A stretch of 64,000 nt of DNA from Endomicrobiales bacterium (GTDB lineage: Bacteria > Elusimicrobiota > Endomicrobiia > Endomicrobiales > CAWCFT01). The position numbers were made by a program, and so were the translations under genes. Positions 1,128-25,600 of this stretch are shown piece by piece; the first letter of the stretch is position 1; each line of letters starts with the position of its first letter. Under the pieces are notes generated by a model. That model saw only the letters and a list, made by a program, of their open reading frames with translations. It was not told where the DNA came from and ran no database searches. Location: assembly GCA_963794945.1 (NCBI GenBank), contig CAWCFT010000003.1, positions 32,001-96,000 on the forward strand, read 5' to 3'.

Positions 1128-1159
1128 TGTATCGCAGGAACTATAATTAACGGAAATAA

Positions 1160-2060: not shown

Positions 2061-2102
2061 TATTTTCATAGATAAATAAATCACTAACCAGGAGCTCTCC
2101 CA

Positions 2103-2474
2103 ATGGCAAAGATCCTAATTGTTGACGATTCAAAATTCATGCGCCTTACATTGAAGAACGTGCTTGAAAAGCAGTTTAACGGCCTGCACACAGTAGTTGG
2201 TGAAGCCAGTACGGCTCAAGAGGCGGTAGAAAAATTCCTCCAGCTCAGACCTGACCTGATAACGATGGACATAATAATGCCAGAAGAATCCGGCCTTGAG
2301 GCAGTAAAAAAAATAGTCGCGCACAACCCAAACGCTAAGATAATCATGGTTTCCGCAATGGGTCAGGAGAAGATCGTTGAAGAAGCGATAGCTTTAGGCG
2401 CGAAGTCGTTCGTGGTTAAACCGGTGAAGACCGACGACCTGATAAAAACTGTCGAGAAAGTGCTGGGAGCCTGA
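2103..2474 (+). CDS. cheY: CheY response regulator
   Basis: Single receiver domain with ILIVDDS, DLITMDIIMP, VSAMGQ and VKP; located in the che operon. Confidence 0.9.
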   Translation: MAKILIVDDSKFMRLTLKNVLEKQFNGLHTVVGEASTAQEAVEKFLQLRPDLITMDIIMPEESGLEAVKKIVAHNPNAKIIMVSAMGQEKIVEEAIALGAKSFVVKPVKTDDLIKTVEKVLGA

Positions 2475-2479
2475 CATTT

Positions 2480-4093: not shown

Positions 4094-4140
4094 TGTAAGC
4101 AGCAGGCTAAGCGTTAACGGTTGATAACAGGGCAAATATT

Positions 4141-5937: not shown

Positions 5938-5969
5938 GTGCGGGAAAACATATTCTCGCCAGGTTATAA

Positions 5970-6737
5970 ATGATGATAAAGCGTGTATTGCTTGTTGACG
6001 ATGATGAAGGTGTTCTGGCTCTTCTCTCGGCTACATTGGAAAGAGCGGGTTACGGCACATCCGGGGTGGAGAACGGGAAGCAGGCCCTAAACAAGCTTAG
6101 TGAAGAATTTTTTCCGGTCATAATTTCGGATATCATGATGCCGGATATGGATGGCTTGACGTTACTTAAACGGGTCAAAGAAATAAATCCTGACATTCAG
6201 GTAATAATGGTAACCGCACATGCGACCGTAGATGTTGCGATTACGGCACTGAGAAATTCGGCCACAAGCTTTTTAAAAAAGCCGTTCGATCCGGACGACC
6301 TGGTTTCGCAGACAGGGCAGGCATTTGAAAAATACAGGCTTCTTGAAGATAATAGAAAACTTATAGCTGAGCTCAGGTACGCAAAAGAATATAATGAGAA
6401 GATAATAGAGAACCTTGTGTATACGTTGATCGTTATCGATGAACAAGGTAAAATAGTGAAGATAAACAGGGCGCTGGAAGATATGCTTGGCTACTCGCAA
6501 AAAGATGTAGCCGGCGCGCCTCTCTCAAAGATATTTGCGGATGAACTCAAGAATACAAGCTGGGAAGAACTCGCTAAAGAAAAAAAGCTTGAAGACTTTC
6601 CGGTTGAATTCATTGCCAGAGACGGAAACAAGATAAAAGCTCTATTCACAGGCACTATAATAAAGGGACCTGATGGAAATGTGGCGGGTTTTATCGGGAC
6701 CACAAAAAACATCAAAGATAAGGCAGACTTAAAATGA
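5970..6737 (+). CDS. Response regulator, REC plus PAS domain
   Basis: LLVDDD / ISDIMMPDMDG / KP receiver, then a PAS-like domain (VIDEQGKIVKINRALEDMLGYS...ARDG). Confidence 0.85.
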   Translation: MMIKRVLLVDDDEGVLALLSATLERAGYGTSGVENGKQALNKLSEEFFPVIISDIMMPDMDGLTLLKRVKEINPDIQVIMVTAHATVDVAITALRNSATSFLKKPFDPDDLVSQTGQAFEKYRLLEDNRKLIAELRYAKEYNEKIIENLVYTLIVIDEQGKIVKINRALEDMLGYSQKDVAGAPLSKIFADELKNTSWEELAKEKKLEDFPVEFIARDGNKIKALFTGTIIKGPDGNVAGFIGTTKNIKDKADLK

Positions 6738-8960
6738 ACGATACAATATTCTCGCTTGATATTGGAACAAGGAAGATCGGGATATTCGCTACCAGGCACT
6801 ACGATGATTATGCTGAGGTCCTGGTCAACAAGATCGTAGAACATAAGAGCAGGGCTGTCCGCGCGGGGCAGATCCATGATATTGATAAGGTAGCTGCGCT
6901 GGTTTCGGAGATAAAGGCAGTTGTTGAAAAAGAGAGTGGTCTTGAAGTTAAAAAAGTTGCGACGGCCATCGCGGGCAGGAATCTTAAATCAATGAGAGCA
7001 GTTGGTGAAATCAAATTTGACGCGTCGCGTGAGATAACTGAAAGCGAGCTGCGCCAGGTTGAGCTCTCTGCGATCCAGGATGCCATCAACCGTTCGCAGG
7101 ATGAAATAGACGATTACCTTTTTGTCGGGTATACAGTCGTTTCCTGGCAGCTTGACGGGGAAGACATGACAAACCCGTTGAACCATTATGCGAACAGTCT
7201 GCGGACCAATATCATTACCACTTTTCTTCCCAAAAAGGTGTTAGAAAGTCTTTTTGCGGTGATAAAAAAAGCAGGCCTTGAGATATCGTATCTTACGCTT
7301 GAACCCATAGCCGCGGCCGAGGCCGTGCTTCCCGCGGAAATGAGGCATATACCGCTCGTTTTGGTAGACATCGGAGCCGGTACGTCTGACATCGCTATTG
7401 TCTCAAGGGGAAGCATTCAGTCTTTCGGCATGATACCTTCGGCTGGCGATTTCATGACTGAATATATCTGCGGTGAGATGCTGGTAGATTTTATCGAAGC
7501 GGAAAGGATAAAACGTGAGTTTGGCAGTGATACCGGCGCCGAATCTGACGATACCCGGACCATCAAGTATAAAGACATATTTTCCAGAGAATACGAAAAA
7601 AGCTTTAAAGAGATACGCGAACTTACGGCTCCTGCGGTTAAAGAACTCTCTGAAAAGATCGCTTCTGAAATAAAGACCCTGGTGTCCAGCCCCGACGTTG
7701 CGTTAAAGAATTATGCGGTCGTGCTTGTGGGAGGTGGAAGCCTTACGTATGGGCTCGTGTCTCGCCTGGCTGCCACACTAGGCATCCCTGAAAACCGCGT
7801 GGGCCTGCGTTCGCCGGCCATGGTTAACAGGTTCATACTTAATCTTCAACTAATAAAAGACCTACAGCTTAACGAGGCAGGCAGTTACAGCCTCAATAAT
7901 GTATTTGGGCCGCAAACGGCTGTACTGCTGGGGGTTTCGTGCCTATCAGCAAAAATGCCAGCCGCGGCACTAATTCATGTGACGATAAACGACAAAAAAT
8001 CTGAAATAATAAATTTTAAGGAAGGCGGATTAACAGTCATTTCGGCGCTTGTAGCTGAAGGTATCAACAGGCAAAAGATCACCGGCAGGGTCGGTCTTGC
8101 AAAGATATTCTCCTTGAATGGAGTTCAAAGGGTCATTAAAGGGAAACTTCCGGAGCCGGCCAGGATAATAGTTAACGGTGAGCCAGCCGGAATAAATACC
8201 CTGCTTAAAGAAGGCGACAGGATAGAGTTTTTCCAGGCCTCAGACGGCAATGACGCCCGCGTGAGGGTCGCTGATATTCTGCCCCCGCCGGAAACATTTT
8301 TATTTAATCAAAAGCTTTTAAGCTTCCCGGTCAAAGTTACTATAAACGGACAGAGTGCAGTACTAGAAGAAGAAATCCCCGACAACGCGAAGATCGAGAT
8401 CGTAAATGATTATTCGTTATCATCCGCTCTCGTTGTGGCGGGCGTAGCGCCAGAGAACCTTATGGAGCAGACCGTCTCATTTGATGTTCTGGGGCAAAAG
8501 ATTGAAAAAAAGGTCAGGAACTGCATTTTGAAGGTCAATGGGAAAGAGTTTGTTGGCCCGAGTGACATCATTAACGCCACTATCAGCCCATGCGACGGTA
8601 TAATATGTGAAAATATCAGAACCGGCGATAAGAGCTGGAGAACTTGTTGCGGTACCGGGCAAGGGAAGGGACCTCAGGATAAAAATTAACACCGAAGAAT
8701 TTATTTTCCCTGGATCGCACGGAAAAATATTGTTGAACGGCAGAGAAGTTTCGGAAGAGACCGAAGTCAACGACGGGGATATTTTGCGTACTATGTCAGG
8801 CCGCGACGCGGAGGCGGTGCTAGTAGATATTTTTCGCTATATATCACTTGAACCGCGCGACACAGCAGGCAAACGCCTTAAGTTGCTGGTAAACCAGCAG
8901 GAAGCGAATTTCACGACGCCGTTGAGTCATGATGCGGATGTTAAGATCAGTTTTGAGTGA
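6734..8960 (+). CDS. FtsA-family actin-like ATPase with C-terminal ThiS/MoaD-like repeats; frameshift at about 8620 (about 741 aa repaired)
   Basis: LDIGTRKI, EPIAAAEAVL, LVDIGAGTSDIA, AERIKR and LVGGGS motifs, then repeated (I/V)NG...L..GD.I units. The two ORFs join by removing one A at CAGAAC 8617-8622. ATGA overlap with the upstream gene. Confidence 0.82.
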
Positions 8961-8968
8961 GGGTTTAA

Positions 8969-9589
8969 ATGAAAAACATGACATTTTCAGAGATCCAGGT
9001 AGACGCGATAAAAGAAATATGCAGCATAGCCTCCGGGACCGCTGCGGGTGCTCTCTCGCAGATCCTCAACAAAAAGATAACCATGAAAGTGCCTGAGATA
9101 AAGATAGTGCCTATAGAGGTCGCTGTCGACACAATGGGCGACCCGAATTCAATAGTGGCCGGCGTATATTCAAGGCTTATGGGAGACTTTAGTGGCGGGC
9201 TTCTGCTTACTTTTCCAAGAGAAGACGTGATAATGCTGGTCGATAAACTCACAGGCAGTGAAGTCAAGGTTCATAGCTTAAGCGAATTGGACGTTTCCGC
9301 TGTGTCGGAAGTGGGTAACATTATTGCCGCTTCTTTTGTCTCGGCTATAGCGAAAATTATCAATAAAACTATTCTTATCTCGGTTCCAAAGCTAGCTTTT
9401 GACATGATGGGCGCGATAGTTGATTTCATACTTATAGAGCTCGCGGAAAACGCCGAGCAGGCCTTAATAATGAAAATTGAATTCGAAGATGTGCCAAGGA
9501 CTATATCAGGGCATTTTTTCATTATTCCGAACCCGGGCTCACTCGAGATGCTCCTAAACAGCATAGAATTATACCATCCGGGCAAATGA
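8969..9589 (+). CDS. cheC: CheC-family phosphatase
   Basis: DAIKEICSIASGTAAGALS and SAVSEVGNIIAASF. The first ExxN site is degenerate (EICS). Confidence 0.88.
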   Translation: MKNMTFSEIQVDAIKEICSIASGTAAGALSQILNKKITMKVPEIKIVPIEVAVDTMGDPNSIVAGVYSRLMGDFSGGLLLTFPREDVIMLVDKLTGSEVKVHSLSELDVSAVSEVGNIIAASFVSAIAKIINKTILISVPKLAFDMMGAIVDFILIELAENAEQALIMKIEFEDVPRTISGHFFIIPNPGSLEMLLNSIELYHPGK

Positions 9590-9596
9590 TTCATGG

Positions 9597-10232
9597 ATGA
9601 AAGCAGTTTACTATAGGATGGACGATATTATGAGAGAAGATATTCGAACAGACGCGTTGCTCGAAGTTACAAATGTTGGCGCCGGGCAGGCCGCGACCGC
9701 GCTTTCCAGGATGCTCCAGAAAAAAGTCTTGATAACGGTGCCGAGCCTGAAGCTCATGCCGATAGAAGAAATACCAAAAGCTCTGGCAGGCACCGAGTCT
9801 ACGGTAATAGGCATATACTTTTATATGGTGGGCGATCTTACAGGCCGCATCCTGCTCGTGTTTGAAAAGGACAGCGGCCACAGGTTGGCGTCTCTGATCA
9901 CCGGAGATGAAAATTTGAAGGCCGGCCAACTAGACGAGATGGGCAGGTCGGCAATGATGGAGATGGGTAACATTATAACCAATTCATATCTTAACGGCCT
10001 AGCGGGACTTATGGATATAACACTCTTCCCGTCCGTGCCGTATCTCGCCGAAGATGTTCTGGGTGCGGTGATCGATACACTGCTGATTGAGATATCGATG
10101 GTTGCTGATAAAGCCTTGCTCATTGATACGCAGATATCGATAGAGAATGAAAACCTTAACGGAAGCTTTCTGGTGTTCCCTGATGAAGAATTCATGAACA
10201 AGATATATGCTAAACTTGGCCTGTTAAGATAA
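9597..10232 (+). CDS. cheC: CheC-family phosphatase, second copy; the true start may be a downstream ATG
   Basis: DALLEVTNVGAGQAATALS and SAMMEMGNIITNSYLN, with both ExxN motifs intact. Confidence 0.9.
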   Translation: MKAVYYRMDDIMREDIRTDALLEVTNVGAGQAATALSRMLQKKVLITVPSLKLMPIEEIPKALAGTESTVIGIYFYMVGDLTGRILLVFEKDSGHRLASLITGDENLKAGQLDEMGRSAMMEMGNIITNSYLNGLAGLMDITLFPSVPYLAEDVLGAVIDTLLIEISMVADKALLIDTQISIENENLNGSFLVFPDEEFMNKIYAKLGLLR

Positions 10233-10249
10233 TAATCTGTTAAAAAGGA

Positions 10250-10747
10250 GTGTATTTAAATAATATGGAAACAGTTTGCGTAAATATAGCGGAATATGCG
10301 GTCATCAAAGCTCCGGCGACGATAGAGACTAGGAGCCTTGGCTCGTGTGTGGGCATAATACTGTACGATATTGTATCAAAGATCGGAGGCCTCGCTCACA
10401 TAATGTTGCCAGATTCCAAAAAAGTGAGCATTGGCGGTAAGCCGGGCAAATATGCCGATATCGCCATAGAACTAATGCTAAATAAGATGGTAGAGATGGG
10501 GGCGAACAGGAACAATGTCATCGCAAAAATGGCCGGTGGCGCTTGTATGTTCACAGGAACCAATATTTCCGATTTTATGAATATTGGGTTAAGAAATGTA
10601 ACCGCGATAAAAAGTATCCTTAAAGAATTCAAGATCAACCTTATAGCTGAAGATTGCGGGGGTTCTCATGGACGGACGATAGAATTCCATTCCGATACGG
10701 GAAAACTTGTAATAAAATCTTCTATGGCACCGACAAAAGAGATTTAA
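10250..10747 (+). CDS. cheD: Chemoreceptor glutamine deamidase CheD (start GTG 10250 or ATG 10265)
   Basis: SLGSCVG, GGLAHIMLP, KYAD, AKMAGGA.MF, IGLRN and EDCGGSHGRTI. Confidence 0.95.
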   Translation: MYLNNMETVCVNIAEYAVIKAPATIETRSLGSCVGIILYDIVSKIGGLAHIMLPDSKKVSIGGKPGKYADIAIELMLNKMVEMGANRNNVIAKMAGGACMFTGTNISDFMNIGLRNVTAIKSILKEFKINLIAEDCGGSHGRTIEFHSDTGKLVIKSSMAPTKEI

Positions 10748-10756
10748 AGAGGCCTT

Positions 10757-11122
10757 ATGGCGAAGATACTTATAGCAGATGATTCGGACATGATGAGAAA
10801 GATAGCGAAAATGACCGTAGCGAAGGGCGGCTACGAAGTTGTTGAGGCTGCCAACGGCGCGCAGGCTGTTGAGGTCGCGGTTAAGGAGTTGCCGCAGCTG
10901 ATATTGCTTGATGCAGAAATGCCGGAAATGGATGGCTGGGAAGCAAGCAAGGCCATAAAAGCAAATCCCATTACAGCGAGTATACCTATTCTTATCTGTA
11001 CGGGGCATGATCTGAGCGACGAGGCCGAACTTTTAAAGGAATCCGGCGTGAGCGGGTATATCACTAAACCTTACAATCCATCGCAAATGATAACGAAGAT
11101 CAAGGAAGTGCTCGGACAATAA
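10757..11122 (+). CDS. Single-domain response regulator (CheY-like)
   Basis: ILIADDS, LILLDAEMPEMDG, CTG and TKP. Confidence 0.9.
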   Translation: MAKILIADDSDMMRKIAKMTVAKGGYEVVEAANGAQAVEVAVKELPQLILLDAEMPEMDGWEASKAIKANPITASIPILICTGHDLSDEAELLKESGVSGYITKPYNPSQMITKIKEVLGQ

Positions 11123-11165
11123 GGTCAAAGCAAATTTCGACAAGCGTTAACGGAGGTACGATATT

Positions 11166-12386
11166 ATGGTAAAAATTCTGATCATGGACGACGAGCCGGG
11201 CTTAAGAAATATAGTGTACAACATTGTAAAACCGCTCGGTCATCCGGTTTTTACTTCCGAAGACGGTCATCAAGCTCTGGAGGTTGCGAAAAGGGAGAAT
11301 CCTGATATCGCCTTGCTTGATGTCAGAGTGCCGGATATGGACGGGCTGGAAGTACTGGCTGAGCTCAGAAAGATCAATCCGAACATAAAAGCTATAATGC
11401 TCTCTGGTTTTGGGGACGTGGAAAGCGCAGTTTTTGCTCTCAAACAGGGGGCGTTCGATTATATAAGCAAACCATTTAAAGTGGATGACGTAATTAAAAC
11501 GGTCAATAAGGCAATAAGCGCTATGGGTCAAGGTCAAGCAGCAGCTCCAGCAGCAAGTTCTGCTGGTCAGCAGCCAGCACAGGCACCTGCTATGGCCCGC
11601 GACAAGGCCACGAAACCGGAAACTGCCGCAACAAAGCTACAGAACAAGCCGCCCATTGGTCTTATAGCTGGCGGGGCACTGGTCCTCGCAGTGGCGGGCA
11701 TTTTTCTTTTCAAAGGTATTCTGACTAAATCACATGCCGAAAGCTATACGATACCCTACTCAAATCCTATAGGTATGTGCTGGATAAAACCATACCTTTG
11801 GGTAAGCGATTGGGTCGTGGGCAATATCTACCAACATAACAATGACGCGACACTTTCGATAGCTTCTGTTTATAAAACCAATAACACCCAGCCGACAGGC
11901 ATCACTTTTGATGGTGAAGCGTTGTGGACATGCAGTTCGGTAGAGAAAAGGATATACAAACATAGAATGGATAAAAATCTGTCGGTATCAGAGATATTCT
12001 CCACCCCGAACAGCAGCCCGGCTGGATTATACTTTGATGGAGCCAACCTCTGGGTACTAGATACCAACGCGGCGAAGATCTATAAGCATAAAATGGACGA
12101 AACTCTTTCTATTGTGAGCGTTTTCGACAGCCCAGCTGTCAGCCCTTGCGGTATGTTCCGGGACGGCGAGTATTTCTATATAGGCGACTATAAAACTTCA
12201 CGAATTTACAAGGTGTCGGTAAATGATTTTTCCGTAAGAGAAGTGTATTCAATGCCGGATTTTGAGGAAGGTAAGAATAAGCTGGCCAGCATCACATGGG
12301 ACGGTTCCAGCATCTGGGCTACGGCTGATGGTGTTGGAAAGATATTTAAAATACCGTTTAAATCTTTAAAAACAATCAAATTTTAG
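11166..12386 (+). CDS. Receiver - Ala/Pro linker - TM helix - extracytoplasmic beta-propeller
   Basis: REC domain (LLDVRVPDMDG); TM segment IGLIAGGALVLAVAGIFLF; repeated P.G(I/L).(F/W)DG..LW....IYKH units. Confidence 0.8.
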   Translation: MVKILIMDDEPGLRNIVYNIVKPLGHPVFTSEDGHQALEVAKRENPDIALLDVRVPDMDGLEVLAELRKINPNIKAIMLSGFGDVESAVFALKQGAFDYISKPFKVDDVIKTVNKAISAMGQGQAAAPAASSAGQQPAQAPAMARDKATKPETAATKLQNKPPIGLIAGGALVLAVAGIFLFKGILTKSHAESYTIPYSNPIGMCWIKPYLWVSDWVVGNIYQHNNDATLSIASVYKTNNTQPTGITFDGEALWTCSSVEKRIYKHRMDKNLSVSEIFSTPNSSPAGLYFDGANLWVLDTNAAKIYKHKMDETLSIVSVFDSPAVSPCGMFRDGEYFYIGDYKTSRIYKVSVNDFSVREVYSMPDFEEGKNKLASITWDGSSIWATADGVGKIFKIPFKSLKTIKF

Positions 12387-12550: not shown

Positions 12551-12660
12551 GCTGTCTGAAAGTTAACGACAATAGCAAACTCCGGGAAACCGGAGGACGC
12601 AAAGCCACGGGGCTAAAGATAGGGGGCTATCAACGCCAGCCGGGTTACCGAAAAGACAGC
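12551..12660 (+). ncRNA. GEMM-I riboswitch aptamer, A20 variant (predicted 3'3'-cGAMP type)
   Basis: ACGACAATA-GCAAAC-TCCGG-GAAA-CCGGA-GGACGCAAAGCCACGGGGCTAAA...CAGCCGGGTTACCGAA, closed by GCTGTC/GACAGC. The base before GCAAAC is A (12574). Confidence 0.9.
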
Positions 12661-12811: not shown

Positions 12812-12914
12812 AGTTCCGATAAAGGCAAACTCCGGGAAACCGGAGGACGCAAAGCCACGGGCCTAAAAGGCGGAGTTGATCAGCCGCTTCAAGGTAGCCG
12901 GGTTACCGAAGACT
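12812..12914 (+). ncRNA. GEMM-I (c-di-GMP-I) riboswitch aptamer, G20 variant
   Basis: CCGATAAAG-GCAAAC-TCCGG-GAAA-CCGGA-GGACGCAAAGCCACGGGCCTAAA...GGTAGCCGGGTTACCGAA. The base before GCAAAC is G (12824). Confidence 0.92.
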
Positions 12915-13021: not shown

Positions 13022-13059
13022 AACCGGATTGTCCGTGGCGACGATTCGGTTTTTATTTT
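13022..13059 (+). terminator. Intrinsic terminator, expression platform of riboswitch 2
   Basis: A 12-bp stem AACCGGATTGTC / GACGATTCGGTT followed by TTTATTTT. GGTAACC (13019-25) and CCGTGGC (13033-39) are complementary to aptamer GGTTACC (12901-07) and GCCACGG (12854-60). Confidence 0.8.
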
Positions 13060-13073
13060 GCGAGGGTAAAAAG

Positions 13074-13460
13074 ATGGAGAAAAAAATGGTTTTGAAAATG
13101 ATTCTCACGGCACTGGCTCTTCTGGCTGGCTGGACGGTTCTCCCGTCTGCCGGTTCTGAGCAGGCTTACAGTATCGTTACAAATTTTCCGAATCCATTTG
13201 ATAGCCGGGAAGGGTCAACGACCATCTGTTACACACTTTCCTCCGAATCGGAAGTACAGGCAAAGATATACGATCTCCTTGGAAATCTTGTCAGGGAGTA
13301 TCCGTCCAAGATCGAAACAGCCGGGATAAAAACGGTTGTTTGGGATGGGACGGACCAGTATGGCGCCAAAGTTTCCAAAGGCGGCTATATTCTGACGGTT
13401 GAGATTAAAAGCGGTTCCGAAAGCATAATTGCTACCCGCAAGATTGGCGTGATCCACTAA
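13074..13460 (+). CDS. Small secreted protein: signal peptide plus a single FlgD-Ig / T9SS type-A CTD-like domain
   Basis: GAGGG RBS then ATG 13074; hydrophobic N-terminus; NFPNPF...IYDLLGNLVR...WDGTDQYG.KV..GGY...RKIGVIH. Confidence 0.8.
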   Translation: MEKKMVLKMILTALALLAGWTVLPSAGSEQAYSIVTNFPNPFDSREGSTTICYTLSSESEVQAKIYDLLGNLVREYPSKIETAGIKTVVWDGTDQYGAKVSKGGYILTVEIKSGSESIIATRKIGVIH

Positions 13461-13472
13461 GAGAGGAAGAAA

Positions 13473-15104
13473 ATGGAAAGGTCGATGAAAAACACGAATC
13501 TTAACAAGACCATAAGCAAAATCGCATTGATTTTGCTGACGGGATTCGTATTTTTATCGATAAATGTCATCAGTCCGGAGCGCATATTCGCTGACGCTAC
13601 CGGCGGTCAACCTGGACAATTCCTTGCGTGGGGCGCGGGCGCAAGGTCGCTTGCGATGGGCAGTGCCTTTTATTCCGTTTCGGATGACGCCTCTGCTACT
13701 TACTGGAACCCGGCGGGACTTGCCCAGATGGACCGCAAAGAATTAATGGCTCTGCATGTCAGTCTGTTTGCCGACACGAACTATGATTTTATTTCTTATG
13801 TACACCCGACCCCAAAGTACGGCGTGTTCGGGTTGAACCTGACAAGGCTTGATTCGGGCGGCTTTGAAAAGGTCAATATCACCTACGATTCGACTCAAAC
13901 CGATATAATAAATATTCAGAACATGGGCACTTTTGATGATGTGCAAACCGCGTTAACCGGCGCTTACGGCAAGAAGATCAGCGAGCATCTTTCGATAGGA
14001 GTATCAGGCAAATACATAACGCACACATTAGACACGTCAACAAACGGTTTCCTGACTTTCGATGTTGCCACAATGGTGCAGGGGGTCAGTAAAGAGCTTC
14101 CCAAGCTTAAGCTTGGGTTCGGCATACAGAACCTTATGGGCACTAAATTCGGCGATACGGATGACGTGTTGCCTATAATATTTCGCGCTGGAGTAAGTCA
14201 CCCCTTCTTAAGAGATAAACTTTTAGTAGCTTTCGATATAGATAAAAACATGAATACCAGCATGGGCTGGCACATAGGAACCGAATACTGGTTGTTGAAT
14301 TTCGCGGCCCTCCGCATCGGTTTCCAGGGCGGCAATGGTCTGACAGAAACTGACGCTGGGTTTGGAGTAAAATACAAGGATTATGGCATAGATTATGCAT
14401 TCGGTATACAAGACCTGGGGCTTTCAAGCAGGATATCGGGTACCTGGAGATTCGGGCCTTCCATCTCTGAGAACCGCGAAATCCTAGTTCGCCGCTACAT
14501 GCAGGAAGGCATGGAGGCGTACCGTCAAGGCAACTTCCTGCTTGCGTTCAACAGGCTTGAGGCAAGTCTTGACATAGACCCCGCGAACAAGGATGTTCAA
14601 AAGATGCATAGCAGGATGCAGCTTATAGTAGGATACCTCCAAACAGCTGCGGGTGAGAGCGAAGAAGCGGTATCTATCAGAAAGGGCGTTGCCGGATATG
14701 TTGAAAGCGATGAGAAGGGTGCTGTAAACGCTTTCAGATATGCTTATTACAAGAACCCAAATAATACAAAACTGCTTGCTTTATTAAACAGAATCGAAAA
14801 AGATGCCGGTATAACGACAACCGAGGCCTACAAAGAAGATGTTGTCGGCTTTACAATCATAGACCAGAAAGTTTACGACGCACGCCAGTCAATAGTAGAA
14901 GGTAAATATGATCAGGCGCTTATAAAGTGCCAAGAAATACTGAACCTTGAGCCCGCGAACCTTACAGCTATGGAAGTCATGGGTTCAGCGTTCTTCATGA
15001 TGGACCAGCCGGATAAGGCGAAACAGGTGTGGATGAAGGTTATGGAACTTGATCCGACAAACAAGGTCGTGCCCGAGTTCATTAATCAGCTCAAAGAGAA
15101 ATAA
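13473..15104 (+). CDS. PorV/PorQ-family outer-membrane barrel with C-terminal TPRs
   Basis: Signal peptide; FLAWGAGARSLAMGSA...DDASATYWNPAGL; GTEYW...LRIG; IDYAF; TPR-like helices at the C-terminus. Confidence 0.82.
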   Translation: MERSMKNTNLNKTISKIALILLTGFVFLSINVISPERIFADATGGQPGQFLAWGAGARSLAMGSAFYSVSDDASATYWNPAGLAQMDRKELMALHVSLFADTNYDFISYVHPTPKYGVFGLNLTRLDSGGFEKVNITYDSTQTDIINIQNMGTFDDVQTALTGAYGKKISEHLSIGVSGKYITHTLDTSTNGFLTFDVATMVQGVSKELPKLKLGFGIQNLMGTKFGDTDDVLPIIFRAGVSHPFLRDKLLVAFDIDKNMNTSMGWHIGTEYWLLNFAALRIGFQGGNGLTETDAGFGVKYKDYGIDYAFGIQDLGLSSRISGTWRFGPSISENREILVRRYMQEGMEAYRQGNFLLAFNRLEASLDIDPANKDVQKMHSRMQLIVGYLQTAAGESEEAVSIRKGVAGYVESDEKGAVNAFRYAYYKNPNNTKLLALLNRIEKDAGITTTEAYKEDVVGFTIIDQKVYDARQSIVEGKYDQALIKCQEILNLEPANLTAMEVMGSAFFMMDQPDKAKQVWMKVMELDPTNKVVPEFINQLKEK

Positions 15105-15162: not shown

Positions 15163-16969
15163 ATGGAAAAAATTATTAAACGAATTCTAATTGTTTTTGC
15201 GGCTGTTTTTCTAACAGTAGCGCTTCGCTTTCCGCTTGGCTGGTCTCAGAGCACGCAGGATGATTCCCAGCAAAACAACCTGATGGACAAAGAGGCGAAA
15301 TTCGAGAAAGATAAAGCAGAATACCTGCAGTCGTTCGTGCTCGACAAGATACTTGGCCCCGGCAAGGCTATAGTTATAGTAGATGTACAAATGGGCACAG
15401 AGACAAAGGTTACAAAACAGGAAGCAAACCAGAAGAAATCAGAAAGAAAGAAAAGGCTGGGCGAAGTAGAATACCTACTTCCCGGAGTTCCGAACCCTAA
15501 ATCGGTAGCGCAGGAGTCAGCACCAGGCGAGTCTAAAGAAGAAACAGGCCAGGCGCAGGAAACAAAGGTGCAGGTGTTGACTGTTATAAAGAAACTTATA
15601 GTGACCGTTTTGTACGATGAAAAGATCACCCAGGATAAGCTTGATATAGTTAAAGACGCGATCATGTCTTCTATGAAGATAGACGTAAAAAGAGGAGACA
15701 AAATAGAATTTAAAAAAACAAAATTCACGCAGGGTTTTGTTGACGAACTGATGAAACCTCAGATACTCGTGCCTATCATTTTCGCTATGATGCTATTGTT
15801 TTTCCTGTTCGGCCCGGTAGCCAGTTTCCTGAGGTCTTTTGTCAAGACAATGCGCGAAAAAGGCGGAACAGAGGTCACCGTGGACTCGAAATTCGAGGGC
15901 GCTGGAGATGAAGAAGGAAAGGGCGGTGGCGGCGGCAACGGAGCCCTCACGGCATCAGAACTCGAGGCGCTGGAGAAAGAGAAAAAGAAATATCATCCTT
16001 TTGATTACATCAATGATGAAAACCTCAAGCGCATGGTTTACCTTATAAGAAGAGAGCCTCCACAGAGCGTGGCCCTTGTCGTGAGTTATCTTAAGCCCGA
16101 ATACGTCAGAGAGGTCTTGAACGCACTGACCCCTGAAATGCAGGCAAAAGTCGCTTTGGAAATGGCCACTATACGTTCCATGGATGAAGAGCAGGTCAAA
16201 AAAATAGACGACCACATCAAAGAAAAAATAGAGTTCCTAATTGGCGGTATATCGCACCTTCTTGAGGTTATCGACCAGGTAGACAAAGTTACACAGAACA
16301 ATATTTTTGATTATTTAAGGAATGAAAAACCAGAGCTCTATGATAAGGTAAGGAAATTCGTTCTTATGTGGGAAGATATACCGAATTTCCCGGATCAGGC
16401 GATGCAGGTGATAATAAGGGAGCTGAAAACACAAGATATGGCAAAGGCTCTGCGTAACGCAAGCTCAGAACGTGCTTAATAAGTATTTTGCCAATATGTC
16501 GGCCAATGCCGCGGCTATATTAAAAGAGGAAATGGAATACGGAAGGCCGCTTACGGACGCAGAGATTGAAGAGGAAAGAAAGCGAATAATAAATTTGATA
16601 AAGCAGCTTGAGAAAGACGGTCGCGTTTTCATAAGAGAAAAACCGAAGACCGACGTTCTTGAAGGAATAGAAGACAACGGCGGCGAACCCGTGCCTGAAG
16701 AGCAGGGCACGGCGAGTTACGAAGAGTATTATAACGCAGGAGCCCAATATTATGAGTTGTCGCAATTTGAAGAGGCGTTATCGTATTTTGAGTACTGCGC
16801 GCAGTTGGATCCTAACCAGCCGGCAATCTATCAGTATCTTGGAAATACATATTATGCGCTCGGCCGCAGCGCCGAAGCGATAGCGTCATTTGAAAAGGCA
16901 TTGGAACTCAATCCGGAGGATCAGGGTCTTCGGGCGTGGCTCTCAGAGCAAAAAAACGCCATAAGTTGA
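15163..16969 (+). CDS. FliF(YscJ C-terminal)-like / FliG M+C / TPR fusion; frameshift at about 16470 (about 601 aa repaired)
   Basis: N-terminal hydrophobic segment. FliF-like LDKILGPGKAIVIVDV, IKKLIVTVLYD and IDVKRGDKIEF. A TM helix. FliG-like EPPQSVALVVSYL, FVLMWEDI and ALRNAS..V..KYFANMS..AA.ILKEEME. A TPR pair. The ORFs join by removing one A at CAGAAC 16466-71. Confidence 0.82.
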
Positions 16970-17081: not shown

Positions 17082-20000
17082 ATGGGCTTGTTCAAGAAAG
17101 ATAAACTAAAAGAAGAACAAAAACTCTCTGAGGCAAAATTGCCGAAAAGCCTAGAAGAAAAAAAGTCTATTTTGCCTGAAAGTGAAGACCTCTCACACTC
17201 AAGACAACGCGCTGAGGAACAGATAAGGGCGCTTGAAGAAAAAATTCAGAACCAGAGAGACAGCTGGGGCGCCAAAATGAAGGAGAAGGAAGAAGAAAGG
17301 ATATCTCTAGGCGCTCAGCTTGAGATGCTTGTACGTAAGGTTCAGAACGAGCGCGAGAAAAAAGAAGGTGAGTTGAACCTCCTTGAACAGCAGGTACAAA
17401 GAGACCTGGTTGAAGCCCAAAAATCTCTTGAAAATGAGATCAAAACATGGAATGAACGCCTTAGCGTTAAAGATAAAGAGATCGAACAAACAAAAGAGGA
17501 AGCGGAGTTGATCGAAACCAGAAAGAGGATAGAGAGCGATCAGAATTCAAGAGCTTTGAAATCCCAGTTGGAACAGATCGATCAAAAATATAAGACTCTT
17601 GAAAGAAAAATGCTCGAAGAGCAGAATACGTGGATAACTAGGATCAAAGGCAAAGAAGAAGAAATTTTAGGCGTAAAAACACAGGTCTCGCTTAAAGAAT
17701 CACAGATATCTATTGAAAACGAGAAGGATCAGACGCTAAAAAAAGAAAAAGAAACGGCATGGCAAGGCCAGGTTCAGGAATTAGAAACAAAGCTTAAGAC
17801 GCAGGAGCTTGAGTTCGAAAAAGAATACAAGAGGAAGCAGGATGAATTATCGGCCTTAAAAACAGCTATCGAGGCCAGGCTCAGCTCCATAACCATGGAA
17901 GCTGAGAAAAGGGAAAAAGAAACTCTGAGCCTTATTGCCAGGACCGAAGACAGGATAAAGATAATAAACGGGCATATTACCGAAGAGAATAAACATTGGC
18001 AAACTGTGCTTAAAGCCCGGGATGAGGAATTCAATAAGCTTAAAGTCGAACTTATGCTCCGCGAAAGCCAGGAAAAATCCGAAAGAGAGAAAAAGTTTCA
18101 GGAACTCGGAGAAGCTGAATCGCTGGCCAATAGAAAAATTAAGGAAATACGGCAGAAAATTAATGATGAAAAAGAAAACTGGAAAATTAGCCTCGATGCA
18201 AAAGAAGAAGAACTGAAGCTGCTGAAGATACAATCAGAACTTAAGCTCAAAGAAGTTCAGGAAATGTGGGAAAGCAGGAAGACAAGAGCTCAGGAAGAGA
18301 AATCGATCCTTGAGAAAAAACTCGTAGCGATCAGGGACAATTTTGAGCAGGAAAAGAATAACCTGAAAAAAGAACTAGATATTAAGACCGCGGATATAGA
18401 ACAGTATGAGCAAAAATGGCAGCAGAGGCAGAATGAGATCGCTGCTGCGAACACAAAAGAGCTGGAAGAGCTCAAGGCTCGCAAAGAAATACTTGAGGTG
18501 GAACTAGAGGAGCTTGAGGAAAACCTTAAAAATGAGAAGGCGAAGTGGGCAGGCCTGATACTTCAGAAAGAACAGGAAGCCAATGTCGTAAAAAATGAGC
18601 TAAAAGGCCGAGAATCTTCAGCTTTGAGGGATCTTGAGATCCTTGATATGCAGTTAAATAAGGAACAGCAACCGCTTCTCGATAAAGTCCGGGATATGGA
18701 AAAGCGTTTTGAAGACCACAAAAAACTTGTCAAGGCTGAACTCGGGCGCCGGGAAGCCGCGAAAACGGCACTTGAGGAACAATTCCGTGTAAGAGAAGAA
18801 AATTTGCTTCTGCGCCATAACAAGCAATCTGAAAAAATTAAAGTCCTTGAACAGGAAAATCTTTTAAAGATCTCAGAACTGAAAAAAAGCATGGAGGAGC
18901 AGTCTCAGTCCGCTCTTAAGAGGATAAATGAACTTAAGTCGGAAGAAAACATGGTCAAAGAAAAGCTCTCTTCGCAAGATAAGACAATAGCGGAAGAAAA
19001 GGCCAAACTTGAGGAACAGTATAAACACCGTAACAATATTTTGTTAGAATCGATACAAAATCTTGAGATAGAAAATGAGCGGCAAAGAGGACAACTGCAG
19101 GCCGAATTGGAAAATATGACAAAGGCTGCGGAAGAGATTAAAACAGAACTTGAGAAAAAAGAAAATCAGCTTTTGGCAGACCTGAAGCTTAAAGAAAAAG
19201 AGCAGGCATCGATAAAGACGTCTTCGGAAGCTGAGGTCGCAAAACTAGCCGAGGCGCTGACCAAAAACAATGAAGAATATGAGCGTGAGATAAAAGCTCA
19301 CAGGGAATCAATAGAGGCGCTGGAAAAGTCGTTCAAGAGCAAAGATGCCCAATTTCAAGCTGAAATAAAGAACATAAAAATAGAATGGGATAACAAGCTT
19401 CAACCCTTAAATGACGAACGCAAACAGCAGGAAGCGCGTCTGGCATTGTCAAAAAAAGAAGCCGAAGACAGAGCGCTCGCTATAGAGAATGCCATAAAAA
19501 TGTCCAGGGAGCAATACAAAATACAGGAAGAGAACGCCGCCAGAAATATATTGCAGGAAAATTTAAGGATTCAAGCGATAAAAGAAAAGCTTGCAAAAGA
19601 GGCTGCCGCTCTGAATCTGGAGATTGATACGCAATCCAGGCAGGCAAAGGAAATAATTGAAAAGCTTGCGCTTAGAGAGAAGGCCCTCGAAAACAATATT
19701 GCCGTTGAAGACCAGAGGCTGCACGCAGAAAGGGTCAGGGTAACCCAATTCTACGAAAATCAGCAAAAACAGCTCAACGAAACAATTAACAAGCTTGAAA
19801 AGGATTATTCGGATTTCGTAAAAAGCGTTGATGCGGATATAAAACTTAAAAATGCTGAACTGGTTCGGGAAGAAAAGAGAGTGAGAGATCTTGAGATGGA
19901 AAATCTCAAGGATATGAAACAAAAAGAGCAGGAGCTTTCGTTATTAGAAAATGAAAACAAAAAAGAACTCGCCGCGTTGTTTGCAGAGTACAATAGGATT

Positions 20001-22653
20001 AAAAATGAAAAAAGCGCTGAGATTAAATCAAAAGAAGAAACAATGGTGTCGCTTGTAAAATCACTGCAGGAGAACAAGGTCATTTATGATAGAGAGCTCG
20101 AGGCGCTCAAATCCAGTCTTGCCGCGGAACTGGAGCCGGTATCAAAGCGCAGGCAGGAGTTAAAAACGGATTTTGAACGGGCCAGAAAAGAGGCTGAAGA
20201 GAAGCTTGTCGCGGCCGCTAAAAGAATAGAATCTCTTAAAGCCGAGCAGGTAGCTTTGACCGCGGAATTTGAACGAAGACACGCTGAGTCTTCCGCGAAG
20301 ATGTCCTCCGCTAAAGCTGATTTTGACGGCCAGGTCAAAACACTGCTCGAACAGAAAGCTGGATATGAAAAAGAGGCAGCGGAAACTATAGCCGCCAAGG
20401 AATCTGAGATAAGCGCGCTAGAAAGCGAGGCCAACCAAAAGAAACTCGCTTTCGAAAAGCAAAAAGGGGGTTTGCAGTCACAGGGGCACTCGCTGATAGA
20501 AAAGGTTAAAGAAGAGATCTCGTCACTGGAAAAGGAAATGTCGCGGCTGGAAAAAGAATACCCGCAGGTCCTGCTGGAGCGTGAGAAAGAAATATCGCTG
20601 CTGACCTCCAGAATAGAGCAAAGATCTATAGAGAACAAGGACAAGTTGGACCTCGCAGAAAAAAGTACTGAAAATTATCAAAAGCGAGCTGAACGCCGTA
20701 TCACACAGCTTAAGGGGCAAATAAAGGAAGCGCAGGAGCACCACAAAAAAGAACTGGAATCGATCGAGGCCAGGCTCTCCAATATTCACTCGGATATAGC
20801 AAAGAAGGAGAATTCATACCAGGAAGAATTCTTAAGAGAAGGAAAAATATTTGCCGAGCAAAAATACGTTCTCGAGAAACAGAAAGCAGAATTTGGCGAA
20901 AAACTCAGGGACCTGCAGTTGTATTCAAGGGAGCAGTTGAGGCAAAAAGAGAAAGAAATACTTATCCTCCAGAGTGATCTGGCTGAAAAAGAAAAAGCCT
21001 GGGAAGAAAGTTGGAAGCAAAAGGAGCAGGAGCTGGCGATAGAAAAAAATTCGCTTTTGCAAGAGCTCGAGAGTCTTGACGCAAAGCTGAAAGACGAAGA
21101 GGAAACGGTCAAAAAAAGAATAAATGAAAAAGAACGTGAAATACAGTCTCTGGAAAATACATACTATACAAAACTTGAAAACATGTCGGCCGAGATGTCT
21201 TCAAAAAAGAAAGTGTGGGAAGACACTAATTTAGGCCTTAAGAACCAGGCTGAACAGCTAAAAAATAGCCTGGCCTCGCTAGAAAACAGTTGGGAAGAAA
21301 CAAAGGCACAAAAAGAGAAAGAGTTGTCCGTTCTTAAATCCAATCTTGAATTTTGGGAATTACGTTCAAAGAACGAAGAAGAAAAAAGACTGGCCGCGTG
21401 GGAAGAAGAAAGATCCGGCCTTGAGAGCAAAGTTAAAGACGCAGAAAATAAGCTGGCCGCGCTGAAAAAAGAATATTCTGCGAAGAACGAGGAGAAGGAA
21501 GCCGCGTTAAATGCCTTAAGGGTCCAGGGTGAAGAGAACGAAAAGGAAAAACTGAATGAACTAAAAAAGATTGAGACAGACTATACAGCGGCACAGAACT
21601 CACTTGCGCTGGAGATATCAGCCTGGGAAAAGAAACTCAAAGAAGAAACTCTCAGGACGGAGAAGGAAAAGAAAGAGATAGAGCGTGAGCTTGAAAAGCT
21701 GAAACTTGAAAGCGCCCTAAAAGAGAACGCAGCAATGTTCTGAGCAGCAAAAGAACGAAAGGAAATGGCGTAAACTCCAGAGAGACCTTGAAGAACAGCT
21801 GATAGACTATGAACGCCAATTTGCCGACGAAAAAGAGAGCTTAAAGAGTAAGCTTAACATGAAGGCAGAAGAGATCAGTACGCTTAAAGTAAGAATGTCG
21901 CTTAGAGAAGAAAGACGCCAGTCAGAGATAAAGCACCGCCAGGAAGAGACACAAAAGATAATATCCGGCCTGGAATCAGAGCTCAAAGTGCTAGAAGATA
22001 AATACGGTAATAATATGGGCGCCTTAAATACAAGCCTGGGAAAATCAAGAAAAGAACTTGAAATGTTGAAGCAAGAAGCTATGGAAAAAGAAGAGAAGTG
22101 GGAAAAAGAAAACGAAAGCAGGGAAAATGCCGCGTCGAGCGCATATGCTTTGATAAATAAAGATCTTGAGGATGTGGAAAACGAATTGAGAAAGGAGAGC
22201 GAAAGGCTTGAGAGGATGCTGGATATAAAGCAGAAACAAATCGCCAATTTGACAGCACAGATGCAGTCTAAAGAAGCCGGCCTTATAACTGAAAGGGATT
22301 ATTCTCAGATAATACTGCAGGGGTTGCAGAAAAAAGCCGGCGATCTTCAGGGAGTACTGAACAAGCTCCAAAGGAATGGCAAAGAAAACGAAAAAGAAGG
22401 TCTTGGGCGCGTTTTCGAAGAAGCTATCGAGCATTATAACAGTGGTAATTACGAGAAAGCGAAAGAAAAACTGGGGCAAATATTGAAATCAAATCCGGAG
22501 TTCGCCGGGGCTTATCAATATCTTGCGCTATGCAGCTGGAACCTGGGAGAAAAAGAAGAGTCTTTGAAACTTGCCAGGAAAGCGTTCGAGCTTGAACCCC
22601 ACAATGAAGAATTGAAACTCTGGATAGAATATATAGAAAAAGAAAGTAAATAA
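17082..22653 (+). CDS. Giant coiled-coil protein with C-terminal TPR; frameshift at about 21738 (about 1856 aa repaired)
   Basis: E/K/Q/L-rich helix with 61-aa periodicity. Removing one T at GTTCTG 21737-42 reads through in frame into ORF 21859-22653, which ends in a TPR (AYQYLALCSWNLG...AFELEP). Confidence 0.85.
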
Positions 22654-22678: not shown

Positions 22679-25600
22679 ATGGCTGACGACAAAAAACCAA
22701 AAATTCCGCCTCTTCCGCCGCAGAGGCCGCCAATGCCGAAACCGGCGGGTGGAGCGACTATACCTAAAGCGGGCCTGCCACCCCAGGCGCCAAGGCCGCA
22801 AGGGGTGCCGGTTAAACCTGTGATGCCTGCGATGAAACCTCCGGTAGCCGAACAAGCTCCTGCGAAGTACGCGCAGGGAAATCTTTCTCCAGCATCTAGT
22901 GAAGTCGACGAGATAAGAAAACAAATGGAATCTCAGATCATGGGCCTGCAGTATCAGCTGCAAGAAGAAAAAGAAAAACTCCTTCTTCAGACAGTCCGCG
23001 CGAAAGAAGAAGAAGCTATGGCGGCGAAAGTCGAAGAATCTCTTAAAGATATACAAGACAGGTTGCGCCGCGAGAAACGCGAGCAGGAACTGCAGGACTC
23101 CTTAGCGAAGTCCGAGCTCCAGGTAAAGGAACTCGAGCAAAGGGTCAGTGCGGAACGCCAAACGTGGGTTGAAACTTTGAAATCGCAGGTCGGTCAGAGG
23201 GAGAGCCAGGATAAGGAGCTCGAGCGCGATTTTGAGTTGAAGCTTAAGGAACTTGAGCGGCGCTGGCACGAAGAGAAGCTTGGCTGGTCTCAGGCTCTAA
23301 GGGGTAAAGACGAAGAGGTGGCTAGGCTCAAAAGGGAAGCTGAAGCGGCCATTACCGCTGAAAAAGGCAATTCCGAAAAACGCATCTCACAGCTGGAAAC
23401 AGAAAGGGACGCTTTCAGAAGGGAGATCAAGGAGATCGTTGACGTACGTGACCAGGAACGCGCGATGACCGCCTCAAAACTCGAAGCTCGCGACAAAGAG
23501 TTCCTATCGCTCAAGGCTCAGCAGGCGATGGTAGTTACCCAGTTGCGCCAGGGAAAAGAAAAAGAGGACCAACTTAGGGCGCTTCTGGAAAGAATGCGCG
23601 CCGAGAAAAACGGCCTCATCACCCAGCTGGACGCGAAAGACAAAGAATACTTTATGCTAAAAACGCAGTTCGCTCTCTATCAGAACACGGGCAAAAACTG
23701 AGCAGGAAAAGCTGATGAAAGAGATGCTGCTCTATAAAGAACAAATGCAGAAAGACCGGGATAACTGGGAAGTGAATATAAAAACTAAAGAGAACGAGCT
23801 GAGGATAATTTCCGATAACGCTAAGGATCGCGAGAACTCTTTAAAACAGTTGCTTGAGAAAAAAGAGATTGAACATACGTCATTTGTCAGGGAATACGAG
23901 GACAAGCTGAGGGCTCAGGAAGCTGCGTTCAGTCAGGTTGTCGAGAAGAAAGAAAGCGAAGCGTCTGCAGCGGTCAGGAAGGCTGAAGAGAAGATCATTG
24001 CCCGGGAGATCGAGTTTAAACAAGCGCTTGAAAAAAAGGACCTCGAGAAGGTTTTGCAAATAAGAGAGATGGAAGAGAAGATGCGTTCCCAGGAAGCTGT
24101 TTTCAGGCAGGCCGCTGAAAAGAAAGAAATTGAATTATCGGCTTTTGCCAGAACAGGCTGAGGAAAAACTTAAAGCCAGAGAGATTGAGCTGAGGCACTT
24201 GATAGAACAGAAGGATGCTGATATAAAAGAAGCGGTTAAAGACAATGTGGTAAAGATAACGGCCCTCGAGCAAGCTCACGGTCAGCAGATCGCTCAGAAA
24301 GACCATGAATTCAGAAATCAGCAATTGCAGTGGATCGAACGTATTCAGGTGAAAGAAAAAGAGATCAACGCGGCCGCAGAAAAGGAGAACACGTTAAAGG
24401 TGAGGATCGCACAGGTAGAACAAGTTGTACACCAGCTGGAAGAAAAACTTAAAAATGAGACCGAGTCACTTATCGCTGAGCGGGCCCACAATGAACAGAA
24501 CGAGAGGGAGTTCAATGCCGCCATCGTGCGAAAAGAAAATGAGTTCAAAGAAGCAGTTTCGAAGCAGGAAGAAAAATTACGCGCCATTGGAAAAGAGCTC
24601 GCCGAGTCTCTTGCCCACTCGCAGATACTTAACCTCGAAATAGCCAAAAGAGAGCAGCAACTCATTCAATTCAAGTCTGATATAGAACGGAGCGCACAGT
24701 CGGCTGCCTTGCTAGCAAAAGAGAACGAGAGCAAATCAATAGAGCTAACAGAAGCCTTGTCTCGCGCTCAAGGCCTAAGCCTTGAAGTGGCGATGAAAGG
24801 TCAGCAGCTGATTCAGTTCAAAACGGAGCTCGATAGGAGCGAAAAAACAATTGAGGCGCTCAAGAGCGAAAACGAAATAAAAATAAAGGAATTAGCCGAT
24901 GCCGCGGCGCGTGCTCAGGGCCTCGGCCTAGAACTCGCCAAGAAAGAGCATGAGCTCGTTCAGGCAAAGATCGATATAGATAGGGCTTCACAGGCGTTCC
25001 TCGTCATGGAGAAGGAAAAAGAAGGCAGGATGAAAGAGGTGTCCGAGCTTATCGAAAAGAGCAGAGAACTCAGCTCTCGCCTTATTGAACAAGAACGTAA
25101 CAGTAGAGAGCTCTCAGAGCGCATAAGAGATAAGTCGGAAGAGGCCGCGCGTGTGACAGAAATTTTAGCGCGGACGGAGAATGAGCTTAAGGTGGCACGC
25201 TCGGGCTTCCTAACAGAACTTTCAAAAAAAGAGAATGAAATAATCTCTTTCAGGGAGAAAGACAGCGACTCAAGGGTCAAGATATCATCCTTTGAGCAAA
25301 GGATTAGAGAACTTGAGGAAAAACTTGAAAATGGGGAACAGGCCATTAAGGGAAAAGATGATATGCTGCGCGATAAGGAGACAGAACTTCTTATACAGCA
25401 GGAAAAGACGGAGCAGGCAAAAAAGGAGCTCAATGATAGACTTTTAAAAGAGCAGGAAAAATTCACACTCGCGGTCGATCAACTTAAAAAAGAGTCGGGT
25501 GATAAGTTATTACAGGAAGAATCTAAATTGAAGGCGCAAACGGATCTCTTAAAAGAAGAGGCCAGGAATGCCGTAAATTTGAAAGAGCTTGAAATAAGGG

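Follow-up and report, generated by a model that had tools for sequence, protein, structure and literature searches.

What does a fused piece of the flagellar rotor do in bacteria that appear to lack the flagellum? The question is raised by a 64,000-nucleotide stretch (the window) of contig CAWCFT010000003.1 from an Endomicrobiales bacterium, in which one gene region joins the C-terminal ring-building part of FliF (ring-building motif 3, RBM3), a transmembrane (TM) helix, the middle and C-terminal domains of FliG (FliG-M and FliG-C) and two tetratricopeptide repeats (TPRs). To our knowledge, torque coupling between FliG and MotA is known only from flagella. We lean towards reading the fusion as the rotor of a flagellum-free envelope motor, that is, a ring driven by MotAB and acting on a shuttle like that of type IX secretion systems (T9SS), as well as on its surface cargo.

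The architecture that had been read from the letters (C-terminal ring part of FliF, one TM helix, Gly-rich linker, FliG-M, FliG-C and a TPR pair) agrees with Pfam and with the modelled fold, and a signal-peptide-like segment, absent from that description, precedes RBM3. The protein of about 601 amino acids that had been described corresponds to an intact orthologue, P0002, which has this length and is 89% identical to the window fusion, whereas the window itself carries two open reading frames (ORFs) in different frames. Pfam placed YscJ_FliF_C at residues 60–188 (27.3 bits, cut-off 23.8) and FliG_M at 292–357, followed by FliG_C and TPRs. The FliG profile TIGR00207 scored 135 bits; for lack of FliG-N this falls short of the cut-off of 227, which is set for the whole protein; domain search, hydropathy and the model also gave no RBM1, RBM2 or TM1. 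The periplasmic part (residues 24–228) was modelled from an alignment of 115 sequences (pLDDT, the predicted local distance difference test score, 79), and a single-sequence fold of P0002 (pLDDT 42) was not used. All 18 Foldseek matches of the periplasmic model at E ≤ 0.001 were FliF or MS-ring entries, with SpoIIIAG next. VIA-align superposed the model on Salmonella FliF 230–438 with Z 12.8 and a root-mean-square deviation of 1.9 Å over 97 residues, compared to Z 8.5 for PrgK and 7.9 for SpoIIIAG. Structural comparison thus identified the FliF RBM3 domain, which the family sequence profile also recovers (E 9e-9), while FliG was matched by sequence: the best match of the FliG part of P0002 was Thermotoga FliG (E 1e-39), that to enteric FliG being weak (6e-13). 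A homologue search gave 140 matches at E ≤ 0.001, and the best 120, which were listed, are mostly about 600 amino acids long; where their source names carry a lineage, it is Elusimicrobiota/Endomicrobiales. The TPR may serve different partners, as first proposed; shorter fusion paralogues lack it. In five homologues of 788–847 amino acids (P0204, P0209, P0231, P0255 and P0266), a HisKA-HATPase kinase precedes RBM3-TM-FliG-M/C at the N-terminus of the same polypeptide.

The extra base that breaks the reading frame inside FliG-C is probably an assembly error, because in the same assembly a comparison with proteins of relatives shows frame changes in 19 of 73 genes (21 breaks in 99.7 kb). Genes that we read as polA, lon and rho are among them, and both fusion paralogues in the window's own genome are also split. 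Three runs of DNA reads gave short pieces only, none of which spans the site near 16471.

In order to follow the fusion across Elusimicrobiota, we chose 80 genomes, 55 with strong matches to P0002 (of 151 sampled) and 25 others. The genome search with P0002 itself (137 of 151) was rejected as a count of fusions since it was inflated by TPR matches, and the recount was therefore made with an RBM3-TM profile. This profile found the fusion in 54 of the 80 genomes, most families being represented and each carrier having between one and five copies, and did not find it in families f2 (0 of 11) and f19 (0 of 7), which we take, from kinship and size, to be gut-dwelling lineages. As leads only, similar clusters in the Atlas are led by Cloacimonadota, Bdellovibrionota, Balneolota and others.

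Sixty-eight genomes, including all 54 with the fusion, were searched for FlhA (PF00771) and FliMN_C (PF01052). Both were present in four genomes, two of which have the fusion, and the original prediction that the protein works apart from the flagellum and its FliM/FliN switch is therefore supported. [quoted passage not shown] In the window's own genome, which is 86% complete, flagellin, FliM, full-length FliF and rod were not found with searches that were positive in controls; these included PF00669 and PF00460 (rod, hook and flagellin), applied in this genome and not in the others, and PF01514 (full FliF), positive in four controls. The genome does encode flbD.

The torque and switch residues were surveyed in 116 homologues of at least 540 amino acids (from 119 listed relatives) aligned to E. 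coli FliG. The by-eye mapping of R281 to N, R297 to T, D288/D289 to E/E and EHPQ to EPPQ proved right and family-wide. Position 281 holds G (73), N (38) or S (5) and Arg in none of the 116, while T (89) and S (14) prevail at position 297, with R in at most one. Glu occupies position 288 in all 116 homologues, and position 289 holds E (75), S (37) or A (4). The His of EHPQ is found in at most two homologues and the Glu of the motif in 114. The Trp of LMWEDI did not hold as a family trait, Phe standing there in 111. To describe the family as lacking the basic torque residues is correct for R281 and R297 but not for the surface as a whole, as R/K is kept at position 264 in 108 homologues and newly gained at position 294 in 103. 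R281 is kept in three of three flagellar FliGs compared from Elusimicrobiota. According to PMC12505986 and PMC7564593, the charge pairs of the flagellar motor are MotA R90 with FliG D288/D289 and MotA E98 with R281, and a Vibrio study describes, in the parts covered, the FliG and MotA charges as important but not critical (10.1101/2021.01.07.425829).

The stators found with the fusion are of the flagellar type, with a flagellar-type MotA and a MotB that has Asp32, the plug and the OmpA domain; the plug and the OmpA wall anchor mark flagellar-type stators in the passages seen of PMC12505986. MotB_plug was present in all 54 fusion genomes versus four of the 26 genomes without the fusion, two of those four being flagellated. 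G121 was rejected as a fusion genome without MotB, as what matched there is an ordinary pair of separate fliF and fliG genes on a contig of 3.4 kb (L156, C153), accompanied by neither FlhA nor MotB and possibly a contamination of the bin. In G067 (L157) and G107 (L158), motAB of the clade linked to TPR-type rotors is present and the fusion was not found.

Rotors and stators also match by subfamily. TPR-type rotors, P0002 included, form one clade (SH-aLRT 99 in a quick tree with an unfinished search), and so do the MotAs linked to them (support 98, FastTree), among which is the unlinked MotA on contig C4 of the window's own genome, which retains both R90 and E98. A separate MotA clade goes with the short-type rotors and another with the third type. 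Both trees are unrooted, and we therefore claim no direction of origin. Among aligned MotAs, R/K stands at position 90 in 28 of 30, while at position 98 ten have E and 15 have Q. The TPR and short subfamilies have lost R281 and their MotAs keep R/K90 (27 of 28), whereas the third subfamily (five loci) keeps FliG R281 and MotA E98 (5 of 5) with MotA R90 in none of the five. This reciprocal pattern amounts to three lineages and not 35 events, and position 98 varies in flagellar MotAs too. A one-to-one co-loss of E98 and R281 was examined and rejected, given that six of nine TPR-linked MotAs have E98 without R281 and two of four flagellar MotAs have Q98.

Fusion loci often carry two MotBs, and the proton-binding Asp32 is present in at least one MotB at every motB locus aligned. 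In eight of 16 two-motB loci (L094, L097, L100, L101, L102, L105, L108 and L087) one copy lacks Asp32 (Asn in seven, Gly in one), a hint that the axle of the stator may be a heterodimer in which a single channel works. The third-type loci L151–L155 (in G117, G016, G010, G001 and G013) are divergent and have five genes, a fusion of about 640 amino acids, a protein of about 360 amino acids, a TPR protein, motA and motB. The window's own genome has two motAB loci, and in its C4 motB the plug and the OmpA domain lie on separate pieces of a broken gene; this rotor-matching motAB (C4 245000–258000) lies back-to-back with a type IV pilus cluster, of which PilT was confirmed and the other names were given by eye.

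The most constant neighbour of the fusion links it to the cell surface. Forty loci with 42 fusions were fetched, and a member of the cluster of PorV/PorQ-like barrels is the next upstream gene for 30 of the 42 fusions and lies within 4 kb for 40, while motA lies within 1.6 kb for 20 and somewhere in the stretch fetched for 28. Of the 20 TPR-type fusions, 19 have the barrel directly upstream and nine have motA nearby. Genes upstream of the barrel encode small or giant proteins with terminal T9SS-like sorting domains, and the window's own example exceeds the cut-off of the sorting-domain profile (Table 1). The barrel scores above the PorV/PorQ family cut-off NF033709 (two members tested) and below the PorV and PorQ equivalog cut-offs; the window barrel is a candidate for both shuttle and rotor partner. 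Local profiles count 33 barrel ORFs and 22 ORFs with a sorting-type C-terminal domain (CTD) in the window's own genome, mostly paired side by side, and most of the roughly 22 CTD ORFs directly precede their own PorV-family barrel gene. Type B CTD proteins of Flavobacterium show such a pairing of the cargo gene with its shuttle gene, SprF, in the passages available of PMC12618676.

A gene resembling SprA/Sov (1754 amino acids, C5 38924–44418, L144) is encoded in the same genome. Its protein matched TIGR04189 with E 7e-41, at 140 bits where the cut-off is 200, and PF14349 above cut-off in the genome search; its sequence matched nothing in the PDB, and hmmscan gave it no Pfam domain at E ≤ 1e-5. 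Searches of five genomes did not recover GldM or GldN, with no control genome positive, and GldK and GldL were not searched.

Table 1 Features of the window that are discussed in the text, by position.
Feature	Position	Strand	Evidence or remark
Chemotaxis cluster: methyl-accepting chemotaxis protein, CheR, CheB, CheA, FtsA/MreB-like actin, two CheC, CheD, receivers	71..12386	+	Pfam
Cyclic di-GMP (c-di-GMP-I) aptamer, the earlier of two tandem riboswitches in the cluster leader	12564..12652	+	Rfam RF01051, 83.9 bits vs 35
Second c-di-GMP aptamer (c-di-GMP-I-GGC)	12815..12911	+	Rfam RF03167, 72.1 bits vs 59
Intrinsic-terminator-like hairpin with T run, candidate expression platform	13022..13061	+	12-pair stem; consensus match only
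Small secreted protein consisting essentially of a C-terminal sorting domain (T9SS type A-like; FlgD-Ig fold)	13074..13460	+	TIGR04183 26.1 bits vs 23; PF13860, PF18962; start by ORF caller 13029
PorV/PorQ-family outer-membrane barrel with C-terminal TPR domain	13473..15104	+	NF033709 140 bits vs 90; PorV 6h3i E 4e-5
Fusion gene, first frame (438 amino acids)	15163..16479	+	Signal peptide, FliF RBM3, TM, Gly linker, FliG-M, first half of FliG-C
Signal-peptide-like N-terminal segment	15163..15240	+	Hydropathy scan, 45 family members; cleavage inferred
FliF RBM3 (S-ring) domain with collar insertion	15259..15729	+	Fold model, Foldseek, VIA-align, family profile
Conserved LPGxP motif in RBM3 collar insertion	15478-15492	+	
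Single transmembrane helix at FliF TM2 position	15763..15819	+	Hydropathy 2.65; helix also in model
Gly-rich acidic linker in place of FliF-C/FliG-N joint	15898..15948	+	Sequence
FliG middle domain	15991..16233	+	PF14841 E 4e-15
EPPQ replacing EHPQ, in FliG-M	16054-16065	+	
One extra base, frame shift inside FliG-C	~16471	+	Comparison with orthologues P0002, P0003, P0005
Fusion gene, second frame (165 amino acids)	16472..16969	+	End of FliG-C, acidic linker; PF01706 and TPR matches
Torque helix	16493-16561	+	Within second frame
Two TPRs	16721-16942	+	Within second frame
Giant E/K/Q/R-rich coiled-coil gene ending in TPRs	17082..22653	+	Two ORFs, probably one frameshifted gene
Pro-rich-headed coiled-coil gene with C-terminal amphipathic Trp-Pro motif	22679..26676	+	Three ORFs, probably one frameshifted gene

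How these parts might work together can be outlined as follows, with rotation, ring assembly and all contacts being what we infer. About 30 copies of the fusion would assemble into a ring of RBM3 above the membrane and one of FliG beneath it. MotA5B2 stators anchored in the wall would turn this assembly through the retained contact between MotA R/K90 and FliG E288/E289 and, a switch being absent, always the same way by default. In the absence of a rod, the collar of RBM3, which is open and carries the LPGxP motif, may transmit force to the periplasmic TPR domain of the dedicated PorV-like barrel, which would hold a surface adhesin exported via a SprA-like translocon. The role of FliM/FliN in bracing or positioning the FliG ring may fall to the C-terminal TPR and the giant coiled coils of the cytoplasm. 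The feasibility of a fused rotor is supported by a Salmonella deletion fusion of FliF and FliG which, in the passages seen of PMC6445934, lacks FliF-C and FliG-N and still rotates and generates torque. In Bacteroidota, the energy-requiring step of the T9SS is release of the cargo-carrier complex (PMC10994853), and GldLM drives secretion as well as adhesin motion (PMC8986121). As the output of the proposed motor we give a modest preference to moving or releasing a specific set of adhesins (surface motility) over general export, and place surface motility somewhat ahead of cargo release.

Coiled-coil genes follow the fusion at many loci. In 19 of 21 TPR-type loci, one of the five genes downstream is a large E/K/Q/R-rich ORF, and counterparts of the giant gene (1546–1854 amino acids) come after the fusion in L073–L080. 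Pro-rich-headed coiled coils with an amphipathic C-terminal Trp-Leu-x-x-Pro motif, possibly a membrane anchor, are present in 10 of 21 loci (window 22679–27190 and L073–L092). At the end of the coiled-coil run the window encodes a Pro/Glu-rich protein with a C-terminal LysM domain (27473–28315).

Several observations weigh against the proposed motor. The SprA-like gene occurs in 78 of the 80 genomes, a hint that export of the T9SS-like kind is spread over the phylum, and 55 of 56 genomes have PorV-family genes; both sets include genomes with neither rotor nor MotB, and the export hence does not need this motor. PorV-family barrels number up to 32 per genome, so that their adjacency to the fusion is weaker evidence than it would be for a single-copy gene. 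The loci of the third subfamily (L151–L155) have no PorV-family barrel, the barrel labels they had received being TPR matches only, which were not counted. At 11 of the 20 TPR-type loci motA is unlinked, and the window has no motAB. In E. coli, R281C abolishes motility (passages of 10.1101/2021.01.07.425829). A Vibrio FliF-FliG fusion without FliM/FliN has a fuzzy, flexible FliG region, in the parts seen of PMC10941966, and something else must therefore brace the ring. The window's own genome has four PilT-family genes above cut-off, and type IV pili may therefore be what the che genes serve. Counts over the 80 genomes, which are related and analyst-chosen, are not independent and carry no statistic.

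Among the other readings, one that we regard as unlikely, though it survives best, is that rotor and stator do engage but that the output is sensing of load or envelope stress through c-di-GMP, chemosensory or kinase pathways, for instance in the control of type IV pili. The tandem c-di-GMP riboswitches, found at the equivalent place in six of seven relatives scanned, would suit this reading, as would the che cluster upstream of the fusion, the several homologues fused to HisKA-HATPase and the PilT genes, one of them beside the C4 motAB. Promoter-like sites were no more frequent than by chance (10 versus 7.2 ± 2.7). Control of the cluster by a riboswitch, however, does not show that the cluster signals, and the barrel within 4 kb in 40 of 42 cases is far more constant than che genes, which flank the fusion in just two of the 40 fetched loci; in these two (L073 and L085) the adjoining genes are cheC. 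The FtsA/MreB-like actin of the che cluster, which has ThiS-like C-terminal repeats and is frameshifted in the window (6734–8960), is also found near the fusion in L073 and L085. The cluster's CheB methylesterase is fused to a C-terminal haem-NO-binding (HNOB) domain (2480–4093).

Improbable, in our view, is a ring that does not rotate, a scaffold or conduit like SpoIIIAG or PrgK whose FliG part only docks and unplugs MotAB, which would then pull a periplasmic partner as ExbBD and TolQR do. RBM3 also forms the static ring of SpoIIIAG, and this reading would accommodate the loss of R281 and R297, the MotB copy without D32 in eight of 16 two-motB loci and the lack of a rod to carry rotation. But MotB keeps the plug and the OmpA wall anchor, marks of a flagellar-type stator (PMC12505986, in the passages seen), and such a wall-anchored stator acts just via the cytoplasmic face of MotA, where the complementary charges are kept.

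Very improbable is the version of the original prediction in which the ring is uncoupled from stators and acts through TPR partners only. It drew on the missing arginines, to which the window without motAB and the unlinked motA at TPR-type loci can be added. Its expectation for the genome profile came out for fliM, mostly absent (2 of 54 fusion genomes), and failed for the stator: plugged MotB accompanies the fusion in all 54, motAB is operonic at many loci (28 of 42 fusions have motA in the stretch fetched), the MotA clades match those of the rotors, R/K90 is kept and E288 is invariant. A decaying relic of a lost flagellum, its frameshift marking a pseudogene, is barely credible: the split window copy and paralogues would fit, but over 100 intact orthologues among the listed homologues, one to five copies per genome in most families, 768 clusters recovered by the RBM3-TM profile at E ≤ 1e-10 and the 19 frameshifted genes of 73 in this assembly speak against it.

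If the proposed rotor is real, a conserved flagellum-free rotor-stator pair would be a minimal motor of one rotor protein and one stator without a switch. It would test whether a FliG ring turns without FliM/FliN and with one of the two classic charge pairs, and it would bear on the origin of the flagellar motor. It would also suggest T9SS-like export and gliding outside Bacteroidota on a different engine, and offer a mechanism for the unexplained orphan fliG and motAB and the chemotaxis genes of free-living and magnetotactic Elusimicrobiota. Uzun et al. (10.1101/2022.07.08.499144) report that free-living Elusimicrobiota without flagella have many homologues of motAB, flbD and fliG and call their role "enigmatic", the text sections covered making no mention of a fusion or operon. 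Elusimicrobium minutum and Endomicrobium proavitum are among the listed supplement rows of a study of MotAB evolution. A word search of the part available of Meheust et al. (10.1101/765248) gave no motility passage, and the passages of PMC12204202 and PMC13277936 do not cover the system. The literature searched, which took in few subscription papers and no bioRxiv supplements, gave no account of the fusion or of its operon.

A further-reaching version, tentative and short of probable, is that the torque core of the flagellar motor, cut down to a single self-assembling FliF-FliG polypeptide plus MotAB, replaces GldLM/GldKN in a T9SS-like pathway and moves adhesins for gliding, in Elusimicrobiota and probably several other phyla. 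It could have arisen when the flagellum was exapted a second time, the injectisome being the first, or be a surviving relative of a pre-flagellar rotor-stator module. All parts come from known families and the novelty would lie in the machine. The system fails membership in the flagellum and may or may not belong to the T9SS; it is best treated as an undescribed machine from known parts. With the flagellar motor core (FliF, FliG, MotA5B2/PomA5B2) it shares the RBM3 fold, TM, FliG-M/C, the Gly-Gly hinge and the acidic torque residue, and with the flagellar stator MotA R/K90, MotB Asp32, the plug and the OmpA domain, as well as flbD in the genome. It differs in being one polypeptide without RBM1/RBM2, TM1 and FliG-N, in its extra TPR, and in the loss of R281, R297 and the EHPQ His; FlhA, FliM and FliN are missing in 52 of 54 fusion genomes, rod, hook and filament having been searched in the window's own genome.

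The gliding motor AglRQS of Myxococcus is of the MotA/TolQ family, with two B subunits and coiled-coil and actin-like neighbours, and is a transporter of the generic type without a FliG rotor. The stator of the fusion system is, in contrast, flagellar-type, plugged and wall-anchored; AglRS is named in the passages seen of PMC12505986. The ring builders SpoIIIAG and PrgK/EscJ share the RBM fold outside the flagellum (Z 7.9–8.5) but form static rings without FliG or a stator. Laboratory fusions in Salmonella (PMC6445934) and Vibrio (PMC10941966) have, as far as their passages go, the same covalent FliF-FliG joint, the Salmonella one without FliF-C and FliG-N, but retain all RBMs, and the Salmonella one works inside a flagellum with FliM/FliN; the Elusimicrobiota fusion is natural, conserved and flagellum-free. 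With the T9SS and gliding machinery of Bacteroidota (SprA/Sov, PorV/SprF, GldLM, GldKN) the system shares a SprA-like gene, PorV-family barrels, a motor driven by the proton-motive force beside a ring, and CTD cargo whose gene is directly followed by that of the shuttle, an order also seen in type B CTD/SprF pairs (PMC12618676, in the passages available). Here, however, the motor is MotAB, the ring would be an inner-membrane FliF/FliG ring, and the SprA-like protein scores below its family cut-off.

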